Source: Dehalococcoidia bacterium (GTDB taxonomy: Bacteria; Chloroflexota; Dehalococcoidia; SHYB01). From it: DNA of 64,000 nucleotides. A program made the translations under genes and the position numbers. The notes below the pieces were generated by a model, which saw only the letters and a list, made by a program, of their open reading frames with translations, had not been told where the DNA came from and made no database searches. Each line of letters begins with the position of its first letter. The first letter of the stretch is position 1. Location of the stretch: assembly GCA_965261455.1 (NCBI GenBank), contig OZ253453.1, positions 1,366,374 through 1,430,373 on the forward strand, written 5' to 3'. Shown here piece after piece: positions 30,661-59,835 of this stretch.

Positions 30661-30840
30661 GCCTGCTTCCCCTTCGGCGTCTCCCCCTGGAGACCTTTGC
30701 AAAACCGACTGGGGTTCTGGCGGGGGGAGCGGAGGTGGCATTCACTTAAACCTCTCCCCTGTGGGGGAGACTGAGAGAGGGCACGCGCCGTCAGGCGCGC
30801 AGCGCCCAAGGGGCGCTCCCCCCTCCGCGGCGCAGCTACG
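30661..30840. repeat. modular intergenic hairpin repeat (modules M1+M2), one of at least 9 copies in window
   Basis: Near-identical to 40885-41062, 47703-48070 and 49725-49880. Contains CTCTCCCC-tgt-GGGGGAGA hairpin and GC hairpins. Confidence 0.8.
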
Positions 30841-30844
30841 GCCC

Positions 30845-30850
30845 TATAAT
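30845..30850 (+). promoter_or_regulatory. TATAAT -10 hexamer 36 nt upstream of ATG 30887
   Basis: Perfect sigma-70-type -10 in an otherwise GC-rich context. Good RBS ggagga at 30875. Confidence 0.4.
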
Positions 30851-30886
30851 GCTGCCCACGCCCAAGGAGCGCACGGAGGACGACGC

Positions 30887-31678
30887 ATGCTCAGTCACGA
30901 AAGCCTAGTCGAGGCGCTGCGCTCGGAGTACGAGCGGCTGGCGCGGCATCTGCGCTCGCTCGACGCGGACGGACTCGCCGCGCCCAGCACCTGCGAGGGG
31001 TGGAGCTCCGCCGACGTGGCGGCCCACCTGGCCTGGAACGCCCGGCTCTACATCCGCTCTCTCGGCATGGGGCTCGCGGGTGAGCCGCCCCCGCCGGCTC
31101 CGGCCCCCGGCGGCACGCCCAAGATCACCGCCGACTTCGTCCGCGACCGCGCCGTCGAGCTTCGCGAGAAGCTGGGAGACGGCCTCCTGCAATCGTTCGA
31201 GGAGCACAACGTCGGCTTCATCGACATGCTCGACGCCCTCGACCCGGAGGTCCAAGACACCCTCACCGTCCCCTTTCTTAACGACACGATCCCGCTGCGG
31301 CGGCTCATCGGCCTGCGCATCAACGAGGTGGCGCTCCATTCCTGGGACGTGCGCAGCCCCGGCGACGACCAGGCGGCGCTGGTCGAAGACGCCGCGCTGG
31401 CGTCAATCGAGTTGTGGCGCGACACCATCGGACGCCGGCTGCGGGCCGGACCGGACGCCCGCGTACGCATCGAGCCCGCCGGCAGCGGCGCCTTCGACGT
31501 GACCGGCGGCGATTCGCCCTCCGCCGACCTTCCCTCAGGCGACACGGACGCCGCGCTGATGGGGACAGCGAGCGCCATCGCGCTCTTCCTCAGCGGGCGG
31601 GCGGACCTCGGCGCCGTCGAGGTCGGCGGCGACCGCGCCTCGGCGGAGTCCTTCGCTGCGCGCCTCGTCATCTCCTAA
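30887..31678 (+). CDS. DinB-superfamily / mycothiol-dependent maleylpyruvate isomerase N-terminal-domain family protein
   Basis: STCEGWSSADVAAHLAW motif. ATG 30887 preferred over track start 30644 because the upstream part is the repeat element. Confidence 0.6.
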   Translation: MLSHESLVEALRSEYERLARHLRSLDADGLAAPSTCEGWSSADVAAHLAWNARLYIRSLGMGLAGEPPPPAPAPGGTPKITADFVRDRAVELREKLGDGLLQSFEEHNVGFIDMLDALDPEVQDTLTVPFLNDTIPLRRLIGLRINEVALHSWDVRSPGDDQAALVEDAALASIELWRDTIGRRLRAGPDARVRIEPAGSGAFDVTGGDSPSADLPSGDTDAALMGTASAIALFLSGRADLGAVEVGGDRASAESFAARLVIS

Positions 31679-31698
31679 CCACGTCCGGCGCGGTGTTT

Positions 31699-31704
31699 TA
31701 TAAT
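31699..31704 (+). promoter_or_regulatory. TATAAT -10 hexamer 42 nt upstream of ATG 31747
   Basis: gtgttttataatgggcc. Isolated AT-rich hexamer directly upstream of the Prx gene. Confidence 0.4.
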
Positions 31705-31746
31705 GGGCCGCGCATTCGAGACCACGCAGGATAAAGGCCCATCCCC

Positions 31747-32202
31747 ATGCTGAACATCGGCGACTCCGCCCCCGACTTCACCGCCACCGACCACACCGGC
31801 GCCCAGATGCGCCTCTCCGACCTTCGCGGCAAGAAGGTCTGGCTCTGGTTCTATACCTCTCCCGGAGGCGGGAACTGAACCCGCCACAGTCACGGGTACC
31901 GTGACAACTGGACGGCTTGGCAGGAAAAGGGCGTCGAGGTCTTCGGGGTGAACGACCGGAGTGCCGAGGACGCCGCGGCGTGGGTCGAGCGCGAGCAGCT
32001 CCCCTTCCGCATCCTCGTCGACGCCGACCGCGCCATCGGAACGGCCTTCGGCGTCTCGCAGCCCACCGCCGAGAAGTACGTGGCGAACAACGCCGAGGGC
32101 AGGCGTCCCGGCGTGCTGATCGACGAGGAAGGGAAGATCGCGCTTGCGCTTCCCGACCTCCGCAACGTCGAGGGGCAAGTCGAGGCGCTGAGCGGAATCT
32201 AG
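31747..32202 (+). CDS. Bcp-type peroxiredoxin (AhpC/TSA family) with in-frame TGA at the peroxidatic Cys position (candidate selenoprotein)
   Basis: Aligns to E. coli Bcp across the TGA at 31876 (FYTSPGGGN-U-TRHSHGYRDNW...VNDRS vs [21 protein letters not shown]...ISTDK). The 31948-32202 track ORF continues in the same frame. SECIS-like stem-loop 31884-31911 begins 11 nt after the UGA. Confidence 0.6.
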
Positions 32203-57276: not shown

Positions 57277-57282
57277 ACCTTC

Positions 57283-57345
57283 GGGCACCTTCGCCATCGC
57301 CGCGCTCATCTCCGCCATCGGCCTCCTCTCCCTGCGCCCGCCGCG
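57283..57345 (+). repeat. direct duplicate of the MFS gene 3' end (matches about 56393-56450) flanking the hicBA cassette
   Basis: cttcgccatcgccgcgctcatctccgccatcggcctcctctccctgcgcccgcc vs cttcgccgtggcagccctcatctccgcgatcggcctcctctccctgcgcccgcc. Confidence 0.8.
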
Positions 57346-57390
57346 CCGCCGTTGACCCCACCCCGCGCGAGCCGGTAGGGTGACCACGTC

Positions 57391-58497
57391 ATGCGCGTCG
57401 AACGGCTCGCCGTCACCACCATCGATCTGCCCATCGACCTCGACTTGGGGTCGAAGTACGGCACGCTCTCCATCTTGCGCTACGTCGTCGTCGGTCTCAC
57501 CGGCTCGGGCGGCGAGCAGGGCGTGGGCTTCACCTTCGCCATGCGGCCGGACGGCGGGGACGCCATCGCCCGCACCCTCGCAGCGGTCGAGGACGCGGTC
57601 GTGGGGCTCGACCCCTCCAACACCGAGGCGAACTGGGCCGCGCTGCGCGCCGAGGTCGAGCGCGCCGTCGCGGCAGAAGGGGGCGGGCCGGAGGAACGCG
57701 AGGCGGGCGCTGCGGCCACGCTGTCGGCGCTCGACATCGCCCTGTGGGACCTTCTCGGCAAGGCCGAGGGCGCGCCGGTGCATCGCCTCCTCGGAGCGCG
57801 TCGGGAGTCGGTTCCCACCTACGCCAGCTACGACATGTGGGAGTCCGTCCCCGACCAAGAAGCGGCGCGCGCCGCCAAACGCTTCGTCGATGAAGGCTTC
57901 CAGGCCGTCAAGATCCGCACCGGCGGCTCGAAGGACCCCGACGCCGAGGCCCGCCGCGTCGCCATCGTGCGCGACGCCATCGGCCCCGACGTGCAGCTCA
58001 TGTACGACGCCTTGCAGTACTACACCGAGGACGAGGCGGTCGCCATCGCCCGGGCCCTGGAGCTCTACGACCTGACGTGGGTCGAAGACCTGCTGCCGGA
58101 GCGCAATGTCGAGGGCTATGCGCGGGTCCGCGAGGCCGTCGGCGTTCCCATCACCACCGGGGAGAGCACGCGCTTCCCCGAAGGCCTGCGGCGGCTCGTG
58201 GAGGCGGAGGCCGTCGATATCCTCATGATCGACGGCAAGGAAGCGGGCGGGATCACACCCTGGATGCGCGTGGCGCGGGAGTCGGGCGGTCTGCCCATCA
58301 TCAGCCACATCATGCCCGAGATCAGCGCCCCGGTCATCGCGGCGCTCCCCAACGGAATGATCCTCGAGTGGTTCCCCTGGAGCTTCGGCCTCTTCGAGAC
58401 GCCCCCGGCCGCCGAGCGCGGCCTCTACCGTCTCCCCGCCGAGCCCGGCTTCGGCCTGCGCTACCGCCCCGACCTCCTCGGCCGCCTGTTCGGCTAG
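57391..58497 (+). CDS. enolase-superfamily enzyme (mandelate racemase/muconate-lactonizing enzyme family)
   Basis: N-terminal capping domain plus KIRTGG...D..E..D metal-ligand layout. 368 aa. Confidence 0.8.
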   Translation: MRVERLAVTTIDLPIDLDLGSKYGTLSILRYVVVGLTGSGGEQGVGFTFAMRPDGGDAIARTLAAVEDAVVGLDPSNTEANWAALRAEVERAVAAEGGGPEEREAGAAATLSALDIALWDLLGKAEGAPVHRLLGARRESVPTYASYDMWESVPDQEAARAAKRFVDEGFQAVKIRTGGSKDPDAEARRVAIVRDAIGPDVQLMYDALQYYTEDEAVAIARALELYDLTWVEDLLPERNVEGYARVREAVGVPITTGESTRFPEGLRRLVEAEAVDILMIDGKEAGGITPWMRVARESGGLPIISHIMPEISAPVIAALPNGMILEWFPWSFGLFETPPAAERGLYRLPAEPGFGLRYRPDLLGRLFG

Positions 58498-58714
58498 CGC
58501 TGCCCCCTAATAGAGACCCTTGCATAACTTGATGCAGGGGCGGGGCTCTTACCCCCTTGTATCTTGGGGAGGAGAGCGGTAGACCGATACCCCCCTGGTC
58601 CAAGAAAGACCGTGGGAGAGCGATGGTCGCCGCTCCTACTCCAAGGAAGAGCCCGAACAGTTGCCAGGGCATGCAAAGCCCGAATCTGCAAGGTAGGGCC
58701 AAAGGAGAGGGATT

Positions 58715-59686
58715 GTGGAGTCAGCGGAACGTTTCGTGGGGATCGACGTCTCCAAGAAGGTGCTGGACATCGCCGTCCTGCCGGACGGGACGCAGTGGAG
58801 CGTCCCCAACACGCCGCAGGGAATTGACGAATTGGTCGCCGCGCTCGGACCCCTGGCGCCGGTGCTGGTGGTGCTGGAATCGACGGGCGGACTGCAGCGG
58901 GCGGTCGTGGCGGGGCTCGTCGCGGCGCAGATCCCGACGGCGGTGGTCAATCCGCGCCAGGTGCGGGACTTCGCCAAGGCCAGCGGACGGCTGGCCAAGA
59001 CGGACCGGCTGGACGCGGAGGTCATTGCGCGCTTCGGCATGGCCATCCGGCCGCGGCCCACCCGTCTACCCGACGCGGAAGCACAGGCGCTGGAGGCGCA
59101 ACTGGAGCGAAGGCGGCAGGTGGTCACCATGATCACGGCGGAGAAGAACCGTCTGAGCAGCACCGTGGGGCCGGTCCGCAAGGACATCCAGCGCCACATC
59201 GCCTGGCTGGGAAAGGAGTTGCGCAAGCTGGACGAGGAGCTGAGCAAGCGCATCCAACGGAACCCGGTATGGCGGGAGCGAGAGGACCTGCTTCGGAGCG
59301 TCCCCGGGGTGGGGCCGGTGCTGGGCATGACGCTGCTGGCGGAGGTCCCCGAGCTGGGGGAGCTGGGCGGCAAGCAGATCGCGAGCCTGCTCGGGGTCGC
59401 CCCGTTCAACCGCGACAGCGGGATGCTGCGCGGGCGGCGCACCGTGTGGGGAGGTCGGGCGCCGGCTCGTCAGACCCTGTACATGGCCACGCTTACGGCC
59501 ACGCGCCACAATCCGGTGATCCGGGACTTCTATCTGCGGCTCTGCGGGTCGGGCAAGGCAAAGAAGGTCGCGCTGACCGCCTGCATGCGCAAACTGCTGG
59601 TCATCCTCAACAGCATGCTCAAGCACGGCGCCGCGTGGGACCCGTCGTTCGCGAGAACGGAGGTCCCAGCCGTAGAGAACCCTTGA
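58715..59686 (+). CDS. IS110-family transposase
   Basis: [16 protein letters not shown]...LESTGG N-terminal DEDD domain and C-terminal transposase_20-like region. Confidence 0.85.
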
Positions 59687-59689
59687 CTT

Positions 59690-59835
59690 TCAACACAGTT
59701 GCTCTCCCGCTGGGAGAGGGTTGGGGTGAGGGCGGGGGGCGGCGGGGCGCGCCAAGGTGGACGAAGCGCGCCGCTATCAAGGATGGACGCTTAGAGGGCG
59801 CCACAGGGCGGCGCCCCTCCCGTCCCTGAGAGTGT
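59690..59835. repeat. REP-like hairpin module copy (CTCTCCC-gct-GGGAGAG; GGGCGCC...GGCGCCC) abutting the IS110 3' end
   Basis: Related to M1/M2 modules elsewhere in the window. Confidence 0.6.

Follow-up and report, generated by a model that had tools for sequence, protein, structure and literature searches.

A 64,000-nucleotide stretch of the genome of a Dehalococcoidia bacterium (contig OZ253453.1, positions 1,366,374 to 1,430,373; hereafter the window) contains a family of hairpin-rich intergenic repeats, and the loci occupied by these repeats are best read, at a probability of roughly 80%, as a two-layer mosaic of selfish non-coding DNA shared within a clade. The first layer consists of hairpins resembling repetitive extragenic palindromic (REP) sequences, and the second of MITEs, or miniature inverted-repeat transposable elements, of the kind associated with IS5-family insertion sequences (IS), which insert into the loops of the first-layer hairpins. 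The repeats themselves are real. Three modules, M1 to M3, had been described in the original prediction as recurring at nine places, and a blastn-short self-search of the window with the nine segments matches only those nine; eight are strong members, while the ninth (59690-59835) belongs only at 59702-59758, the rest of it being unrepeated. When the window is set against 0.8 Mb of related DNA, the depth of repetition reaches 78-230 at 30680-30829, 33274-33433, 34948-35112, 36618-36763, 38261-38386, 40895-41072, 47558-48237 and 49410-50026, and 23 at 59702-59758; the same comparison reveals a small additional member, overlooked previously, at 39926-39961. The modules are as described: M1 is a 75-bp unit forming a tandem array of 5.0 copies, M2 consists of GC hairpins with perfect 6-8-bp stems and 3-nt loops in the window, and the M3 hairpin with its right half is found at 33332-33352 and twice within 49385-50010. 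All copies in the window lie between genes, as judged from starts set by codon-position G+C and codon bias together with Pfam domains, and a coding origin of the repeats was rejected for the window.

The second layer is recognized by terminal inverted repeats (TIRs) of 17-18 bp with the motif GGAGACCTTTGCRYAAC(C). The related DNA examined comprises 102 Dehalococcoidia loci totalling 0.88 Mb, about 5% of each genome sampled (single loci and contigs are cited by L numbers), and in the Dehalococcoidia DNA GGAGACCTTTGCRYAAC occurs 102 times at three or fewer mismatches. The innermost inverted pairs number 27 and span 153-248 bp, many of them 153-165 bp; their interiors differ in sequence and follow a common plan of TIR, left box ending in GGTCTTNCC, central first-layer hairpin, G-rich right box and TIR. 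M1 represents the left half of one such element (type 1), while M3 corresponds to the central part plus right half of a second (type 2). The sequence just outside the TIRs is nearly always CTCCC-NNN to the left and NNN-GGGAG to the right, and the flanking triplets form a perfect 3-bp direct repeat in 9 of the 27 pairs as against 1.6 expected by cross-pairing (P=1.4e-5). The triplet varies (GTG, TCT, CCC, AAG, AAC, AGA), and since the two triplets are direct repeats and not reverse complements, the arms are not part of a longer TIR. In the window these target-site duplications (TSDs) are TCT at locus F (40908-41064; loci are lettered as in Table 1), GCT at the outer element of locus H (49443-50008) and TCT at the last unit of locus G.

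Filled and empty sites accord with insertion into hairpin loops. Locus B of the window supplies a paralogous empty site, ...cctcttctccc-GTG-gggagaagattgag, the version of which in L001, a metagenome contig from ENA representing a sister strain 97-99% identical to the window, is interrupted by a type-1 MITE of 155 bp that has GTG at either side. The orthologous site of locus B is empty in L027 and occupied by a different mosaic in L085, and further presence/absence cases occur at the species level among the related loci. Relative to expectation, free copies of the target CTCCCNNNGGGAG are enriched about 40-fold among the related loci and 16-fold within the window, and after insertion the element tips GGAGA/TCTCC pair with the split arms, e.g. 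at 30679-30694 and 49903-49917. The elements thus combine the features by which MITEs are known: TIRs, a TSD of fixed length, a small size without room for an open reading frame (ORF), dispersal in multiple copies, and filled versus empty sites.

Full-length elements with the same ends were found in a source independent of the Dehalococcoidia loci. A single metagenome scan with CYCCCNNNGGAGACCTTTGCRYAAC gave 97 contigs (G+C 0.50-0.73) with 45 TIR pairs, 16 of 1105-1205 bp and the other 29 MITE-sized (141-438 bp). A perfect TSD flanks 19 of the 45 pairs (7 of the 16 full-length elements) against a cross-pair rate of 1.5% (P=4e-23), and the flanks are nearly always the arms of ccctCTCCC-NNN-GGGAGaggg, which co-vary between copies. 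The two ORFs of full-length elements that were scanned, 322 and 329 aa in length, score 272 (271.8) and 299 (299.2) bits with the NCBIfam IS5 model NF033581 (cutoff 140) and carry the Pfam domains DDE_Tnp_1 (PF01609) and DUF772 (PF05598); the other full-length elements have homologous ORFs by tblastn. These transposases are 49-88% identical to each other, and their identity to IS5-family proteins from plasmids is 46% at most. The end consensus of the full-length IS, GGAGACCTTTGCatAAC (30 ends), is the same as that of the MITEs of the Dehalococcoidia loci and window, GGAGACCtTTGCgtAACc (34 ends), and because ends, 3-bp duplication and target are identical in the IS and the small elements, the latter are MITEs of that IS5-family group. 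The terminus GAGACCTTTGCAAAA has been published for the IS5-family ISNme1 of Neisseria meningitidis and for the ISPg1/BrickBuilt MITE group of Porphyromonas gingivalis (PMC4596501).

A number of observations weigh against this interpretation. About half of the TIR pairs are without a perfect TSD, and the filled and empty sites are comparisons between species or between paralogous copies, none being a clean case between very close strains. No IS5-type transposase gene was found by tblastn in the window or in the 0.88 Mb of the 102 Dehalococcoidia loci, a sample of about 5% per genome; the long TIR pairs of those loci contain only IS481 or IS110 elements or ordinary genes, and inside their ~18-bp ends the MITEs have nothing in common with the IS. 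In addition, no TIR lies within 130 nt of 116 of the 135 M2 cores, so that IS5-type transposition does not in itself account for the commonest module; M2 mostly stands alone as a REP-like hairpin module and is the landing site for the MITEs.

The hairpins of the first layer are built alike, with a polypyrimidine arm joined to a polypurine arm by a 3-nt loop and, after these, a purine tail mirroring the 3' arm, often with GC hairpins beyond it; examples are CTCTCCCCC-TCT-GGGGGAGA, CTTCTCCC-NNN-GGGAGAAG and CCCTCTCCC-GCT-GGGAGAGGG. Among copies recognized by 3' arm and tail, complementarity of the 5' arm is perfect in 111/138, 45/54, 21/24, 27/30, 5/6 and 14/16 for the six variants (Table 1), and perfect pairing in 80-90% of copies across six different stems indicates that the stem is maintained via compensatory differences. 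In all six variants the tail mirrors the 3' arm, with 45/50 positions matching, a fit that is reached by 2/720 permutations, and a direct repeat fits worse. Stand-alone M2 has the consensus [CCCCC-nnn-GGGGG]-A-CACCTTAARCC-[M2 hairpin]-tail, with GC hairpins or CCGGGGCGGGG after it. With stems of 7-9 bp and hundreds of copies, M2, M3 and M4 answer to the description of REPs as short GC-rich extragenic palindromes in high copy, and neither a GTAG nor a CGTC tag is present in their consensus sequences. A GTAG tag is present only in a separate REP type, GTAGGGGCGAnTCGCGAnTCGCCC; the REP type at 39933-39956 recurs in 19 related loci, often beside M2. A second REP type, GTAGGGGCAACCCTCGTGGTTGCCC, is common within TIR elements.

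When searched against Rfam at gathering scores the whole window has no match, and permissive E-values add only sub-threshold whalefall-1 matches and chance miRNA matches. The M2 hairpin and tail score 20-24 bits with Whalefall-1 (RF01762; gathering score 37) at 30750-30782, 35030-35063, 36681-36714 and 38304-38337. Whalefall-1 likewise has a UCUCUCC/GGAGAGA hairpin, behind which comes a GGGUGAGG tail rich in purines, but this is a resemblance only, since the best score is 24 bits as against 37, the model's 23-nt insert is missing here, and the M4 copies do not match.

The system is lineage-wide within a group of uncultured soil Dehalococcoidia, and the description of the repeats as genome-specific does not hold. 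A collection of 185,579 species with one genome each, which does not include the window's own genome, has the 20-nt M2 core TGGGGGAGACTGAGAGAGGG in at least 102 stretches; among the matches listed, all but two are in five metagenome-assembled genome (MAG) assemblies labelled Dehalococcoidia bacterium, so that at least five Dehalococcoidia MAG species are represented, and on one MAG chromosome of 2.79 Mb the matches are spread between 0.14 and 2.7 Mb. The related loci contain 139 occurrences of the M2 core and 56 of the M3 core, M1 being restricted, among the related loci compared, to the window, L001 and two loci of the closest MAG. The amidohydrolase array of the window is ~85% identical to two of the representative MAGs, and its IS110 element is 97-98% identical to copies in a third. 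A blastn search of locus G against a plasmid collection gave no match, nor did the M2 core and TIR-plus-target patterns against viral contigs, and the exact sequences of the repeats were not found in the searchable literature.

Assembly of the mosaic can be envisaged as follows. A DDE transposase of the IS5-family group, the full-length elements of which have identical ends, would move the MITEs, inserting them into the loop of a first-layer hairpin and duplicating three loop bases. Each MITE would bring its own central first-layer hairpin, every insertion would thereby create new landing sites, and the elements would nest in one another, away from genes. Slippage between copies of the hairpin arm and loop (CCTCTCCCCCTCT, 75 bp apart) would amplify M1, tandem gene duplication and conversion would copy M2 spacers, and recombination between copies would exchange flanks and neighbouring genes. 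We infer that the transposase of this group has recently been active in this lineage and recognizes the palindrome, and that the stand-alone hairpins are without host function.

Nesting follows from the presence of a target hairpin at the centre of every MITE, and is seen in locus H, where type 1 lies within type 2 within an M4-type hairpin, and in locus G and L001, where a type-1 element lies in the M3 loop of a type-2 element. When a type-1 element is seated in an M2-like hairpin, the 13-nt CCTCTCCCCCTCT occurs twice, in the left flank and in the central hairpin, 75 bp apart, and slippage between these two copies accounts for the M1 array, 5.0 units long in the window and a single unit in L001, the sister strain. 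Comparable arrays of 25-, 84- and 168-bp units are found elsewhere; L021 carries five tandem units of ~168 bp made up of M2, a GC hairpin and M3 (4840-5740), and L076 three units of 84 bp (1911-2100).

The M2 spacers of loci C, D and E have a different history. As originally noticed, the spacers before amidohydrolase genes 2-4 are more conserved (97.5-99.3% identical) than the coding sequences (82-88%), a contrast suggestive of gene conversion or of strong selection acting on the leader. The three spacers arose with the tandem amidohydrolase duplication, were then homogenized, and do not represent three independent insertions. Conservation of the spacers (34980-35167, 36656-36818 and 38304-38441) includes non-repeat promoter/5' untranslated region (5'-UTR) sequence with a ggggcc-AAC-ggcccc hairpin.

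The segment between loci G and H contains different genes in the window and in L001, which marks the repeats as rearrangement breakpoints. Gene content also differs or stands out elsewhere in the window. At 42337-44971 the window has an XamI-like restriction endonuclease and a methyltransferase (Eco57I/MTS domains), and L001 has thiolase and ChsH2-like genes instead; directly after locus H, L001 carries a different gene from the window. The segment ~50100-52200 is low in G+C (58% vs 65-70% elsewhere) and contains ORFs 50195-51208 and 51615-52154, the latter without a family; the former was considered as a transposase and rejected, having only a weak Nuc_deoxyrib_tr match. A HicB-like antitoxin gene lies at 56555-57055 (L001 12390-13111), with an adjoining HicA toxin gene in the L001 annotation. 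Two direct-repeat pairs, 7543-7727 vs 11211-11395 (80%) and 62629-62797 vs 62827-62995 (75%), are unrelated to the hairpin family.

Table 1. Repeat loci and associated features of the window, and arms and tails of the six first-layer hairpin variants
Feature	Position	Strand	Description
Locus A, hybrid	30679..30829	+	Type-1 MITE left half (TIR-L 30689-30706 and M1) fused at M2 hairpin 30753-30770
Locus A, right side			GC hairpins 30784-30799 and 30801-30817, a stand-alone-type M2 composite; right TIR absent
Locus A, setting			Between divergent genes ECH 29801-30589 (-) and MDMPI-like 30887-31678 (+); TATAAT 30845-30850 just downstream
Locus B, complete type-2 MITE, 167 bp	33274..33440	+	TIR-L 33274-33291; degenerate TIR-R 33423-33440
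Locus B, centre	33332-33352		M3 hairpin tcttctccc-GTG-gggagaaga
Locus C, stand-alone M2 array without TIR	34942..35113	+	25-bp [CCCCC-gca-GGGGG-AGCACCTTAAG] units x3, 34957-35032
Locus C, hairpins			M2 hairpin 35033-35051, tail CTGAGAGAGGG; GC hairpins 35063-81, 35089-103
Locus D, stand-alone M2 array as in C	36618..36764	+	M2 hairpin 36684-36702; within duplicated amidohydrolase spacer
Locus E, stand-alone M2 array as in C and D	38261..38387	+	M2 hairpin 38307-38325; spacer 99.3% identical to that of D
GTAG-tagged REP	39933..39956	+	GTAGGGGCGAGTCGCGACTCGCCC; between convergent genes for amidohydrolase 4 and a short-chain dehydrogenase/reductase (SDR)
Locus F, complete type-1 MITE, 157 bp	40905..41067	+	Element 40908-41064; TIRs 40908-40925 and 41047-41064; M2 hairpin 40972-40990
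Locus F, flanks	40905-07, 41065-67		TSD TCT, within ctccc/gggag palindrome
Locus G, nested and rearranged	47570..48255	+	Begins with type-2 MITE left part, TIR-L ~47571-47587
Locus G, type-1 MITE in M3-hairpin loop	from 47640		75-bp left half (M1) amplified to 5.0 copies, 47640-48014
Locus G, right side			TIR-R 48078-48095; TCT either side of last unit; then M2a-type composite 48096-48255
Locus H, outer type-2 MITE	49440..50011	+	Element 49443-50008; TSD GCT 49440-42/50009-11 within M4-type hairpin
Locus H, interior			Extra modules (M2a hairpin 49630-49648); nested type-1 MITE 49751-49907, 98% identical to G copy
Locus I, left part	58512..58553	+	TIR-L-like AGAGACCCTTGCATAACT (58512-58529) and M4-type MITE left half, severed by IS110
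IS110-family element	58554..59701	+	ORF 58715-59686; insertion at ...tcttaCC^CTCTCCCGC of M4-type module; ends uncertain by ~2 nt
Locus I, right part	59702..59758	+	M4 hairpin ctctccc-GCT-gggagag 59702-59718, mirror tail GGTTGGGGTGAGGG, G-rich box
TIR pairs in window	33274/33440, 40908/41064, 47938/48095, 49443/50008, 49751/49907		
Variant M2			3' arm GGGGGAGA; tail CTGAGAGAGGG
Variant M3			3' arm GGGAGAAGA; tail TTGAGATGAGGGG
Variant M4			3' arm GGGAGAGGG; tail TTGGGGTGAGGG
Variant M2'			3' arm GGGAGGGA; tail CTGAGGGCGGG
Minor variant a			3' arm GGGGGAAA; tail CTGAAAGAGGG
Minor variant b			3' arm GGGAGAGA; tail CTGAGAGAGGG

Other insertion sequences also use the modules. The IS110 element recognized originally beside the ninth locus is borne out by an ORF (58715-59686) with the Pfam domains DEDD_Tnp_IS110 and Transposase_20. 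IS110-family elements use the modules as landing sites at one fixed position in 3/3 copies: the insertion point ...tcttaCC^CTCTCCCGC is the same in both other copies seen (L052, L063), which are in other MITE copies. An IS481-family element (404-aa ORF, Pfam rve and LZ_Tnp_IS481) lies in the M2 tail at GAGAGAGG(G)^, with AGAGG(G) repeated, and occupies this position in 6/7 copies, the seventh being cut by the locus edge (L004, L015, L021 at 3541-4837, L026, L027, L057 and L095); the L027 copy is between two amidohydrolase genes orthologous to the window array. Targeting of REPs is known for the IS3, IS110, IS4, IS256 and IS5 families (PMC1525189). The 5' non-coding part of the window IS110 (58562-58714) contains GGGAGAG (58614) and AAGAGCCC (58647), complementary to the right and left flanks of the insertion site. 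These matches are suggestive of a guide resembling a bridge RNA, though as 7-8-mers they are not significant alone.

A function of the hairpins for the host, as terminators, as stabilizers of mRNA 3' ends or as promoter/5'-UTR modules, with mobility secondary, appears rather unlikely as the basis of the system. M2 cores are outside called genes in 127/135 cases, and the contexts of the 135 copies are convergent (33), divergent (23), co-directional sense (23) and co-directional antisense (17), with no clear orientation bias. The core is present in 45% of convergent gaps vs 17-19% of other gap types. Since M2 is thus commonest between convergent genes and occurs in convergent, divergent and co-directional gaps alike (33, 23 and 40), the strict promoter-proximal placement originally proposed is a local impression. 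Enrichment between convergent genes would suit a host function, as would the retention of perfect pairing in six stem variants and the far greater conservation of the amidohydrolase 2-4 spacers than of the genes. Several window copies also end exactly at an extended -10 element (TGGTAGAAT or TGATAGAAT), as does the right end of locus B directly at the extended -10 (TGGTAGAAT) of amidohydrolase 1, and locus F lies 12-30 bp upstream of an amidohydrolase start; copies this close to an extended -10 or to a start codon (30 bp or less) must be transcribed or carry the promoter. Extended -10 promoters need no -35, and insertions may for that reason be tolerated there.

Against host function, the orientation of M2 shows no clear bias (23 vs 17), a quarter of the copies are in divergent gaps, and orthologous sites are empty or carry different mosaics in sister species. 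No intrinsic terminators are present on the sense strand of the modules, which have no U-tracts and have purine-rich tails; sigma-70-like and terminator-like sites are not above shuffles (terminator-like 8 vs 11.8 in shuffles); and the folding energies of whole elements are unexceptional for their G+C content (z -0.5 to -1.6). Because there is no excess of promoters or terminators, no exceptional folding and no Rfam family at gathering score, the system is treated as selfish DNA. In three species the M2 core is in frame within a long ORF of two CoA-transferase family III domains (L078 4994-7648, L052 3506-6196, L096 1878-4436), where it encodes a linker ...ALSQSPPEGER...; this looks like an intragenic repeat that fuses two genes.

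It is improbable that a REP-associated tyrosine (Y1/HUH) transposase, working on single-stranded hairpins, makes the copies of all modules, M1 to M3 included, as in the bacterial interspersed mosaic elements (BIMEs) of E. coli or the REPINs of Pseudomonas. Such a process would fit the genuine GTAG REPs of the window (39933-39956) and of 19 related loci, often near M2, as well as the preponderance of M2 modules that stand alone without TIR and their REP-like enrichment in convergent gaps; GTAG REPs within small palindromes have been described in a member of the Chloroflexi, Thermomicrobium roseum (PMC3733652). However, the M2, M3 and M4 hairpins are without the GTAG or CGTC tag, and elements with TIRs, a 3-bp TSD and IS5-family DDE ends are not products of Y1 transposases. 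A tblastn search with E. coli RayT found nothing in the 0.88 Mb (best E = 0.44), which is weak evidence since each genome is little sampled.

Selection of the hairpin and mirror purine tail for an intramolecular triplex (H-DNA-like) structure, recognized by transposases and perhaps by host proteins, has a comparably small chance of being the explanation. The mirror tails are found in all six variants (45/50 positions; 2/720 permutations) and three unrelated transposase families insert at fixed points of the modules, as a structural signal would lead one to expect, but there are only six variants, some of which are related, and the mirror relation could be a relic of module origin; canonical G-quadruplex motifs are rare (2 in 2.6 kb of repeats). 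A speculative extension, for which the odds are likewise low, would make the hairpin and mirror tail a triplex-like "landing pad" for IS5, IS481 and IS110, the MITEs carrying the pad with them so that the mosaic would build itself through its own loops. Finally, confinement of the repeats to the 64-kb region as by-products of segmental duplication in a 20-kb stretch, although C, D and E do belong to the tandemly duplicated amidohydrolase unit and all window copies are at 30.6-50 kb except one at 58.5-59.8 kb, is refuted as a general explanation, and is exceedingly improbable, given at least 102 stretches with the M2 core, dispersed over 0.14-2.7 Mb of the 2.79-Mb MAG chromosome and four other MAG assemblies, and TIR elements in 97 metagenome contigs.

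The two-layer mosaic has counterparts among known systems, the closest IS5-family MITEs being those with GAGACCTTTGCA termini, namely ISNme1 and its ATR MITE in N. meningitidis and ISPg1/4/9 and the BrickBuilt MITE of P. gingivalis (PMC4596501). ISNme1 has the same terminus, the published TIR being GAGACCTTTGCAAAA and the window M1 start GGAGACCTTTGCAAAACC; MITEs of the ISNme1/BrickBuilt type are likewise small and non-coding with only their ends in common with the IS, and BrickBuilt contains an internal tandem array comparable to the 75-bp M1 array here. The TSDs of BrickBuilt are irregular, whereas here there is a consistent 3-bp TSD and strict loop insertion in CTCCC-N3-GGGAG hairpins, and unlike that group the present elements are very G+C-rich, belong to Dehalococcoidia and each have a copy of the target hairpin at the centre.

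For the mosaic as a whole the closest analogue is the Neisseria intergenic mosaic elements (NIMEs), in which dRS3 palindromes, ATTCCC-N8-GGGAAT, flank 50-150-bp repeat sequence (RS) modules (PMC1797815); in both, many module families are each bounded by halves of a short palindrome. NIMEs are also dynamic between strains and interspersed with MITEs and IS, dRS3 is the target of an IS110-like recombinase, and the IS5-family ISNme1 with the same TIR is in the same genomes (PMC1797815, PMC4596501). The palindrome here differs in sequence and spacing (CTCCC-N3-GGGAG), and its mosaic can be read as TSD-flanked insertions into hairpin loops, whereas NIMEs have no established mechanism of that kind. 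The original comparison with REPs and BIMEs was sound as regards a hairpin-rich mosaic that is non-coding, intergenic and genome-wide, but not for M1 and M3, which are halves of TIR-bounded, TSD-flanked MITEs of the IS5-family group. Like the present repeats, REPs and BIMEs are GC-rich extragenic hairpins that occur in many copies, cluster into mosaics and are found more often downstream of genes, and they serve as specific landing sites for several IS families including IS110 and IS5; IS1397 and ISKpn1 insert in REP loops, and ISPpu9/10 and ISPa11 are REP-targeting members of the IS110 family (PMC1525189, PMC2817692, PMC3733652). GTAG REPs are also present here, but the main hairpins differ in being tagless, with polypyrimidine/polypurine arms and a mirror purine tail, and IS481 is an additional targeting family.

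The mechanism therefore combines known kinds, an IS5-family MITE and REP-like targets in a NIME/BIME-like mosaic, and no new category is called for. Several long spurious ORFs and over-extended starts cross the repeats, which will confuse MAG assembly, gene calling and motif-based RNA discovery. The repeats also mark breakpoints of strain-level differences in gene content in an uncultured soil lineage, and the case defines a widespread IS5-family group whose targeting of hairpin loops is unusually strict. The origin of BIMEs and NIMEs is still debated, and the readable 3-bp duplications show how a "modular" intergenic mosaic can assemble; if the landing-pad reading is true, they would provide a TSD-marked model for the origin of palindrome-punctuated mosaics such as the NIMEs of Neisseria and the BIMEs of enterobacteria.

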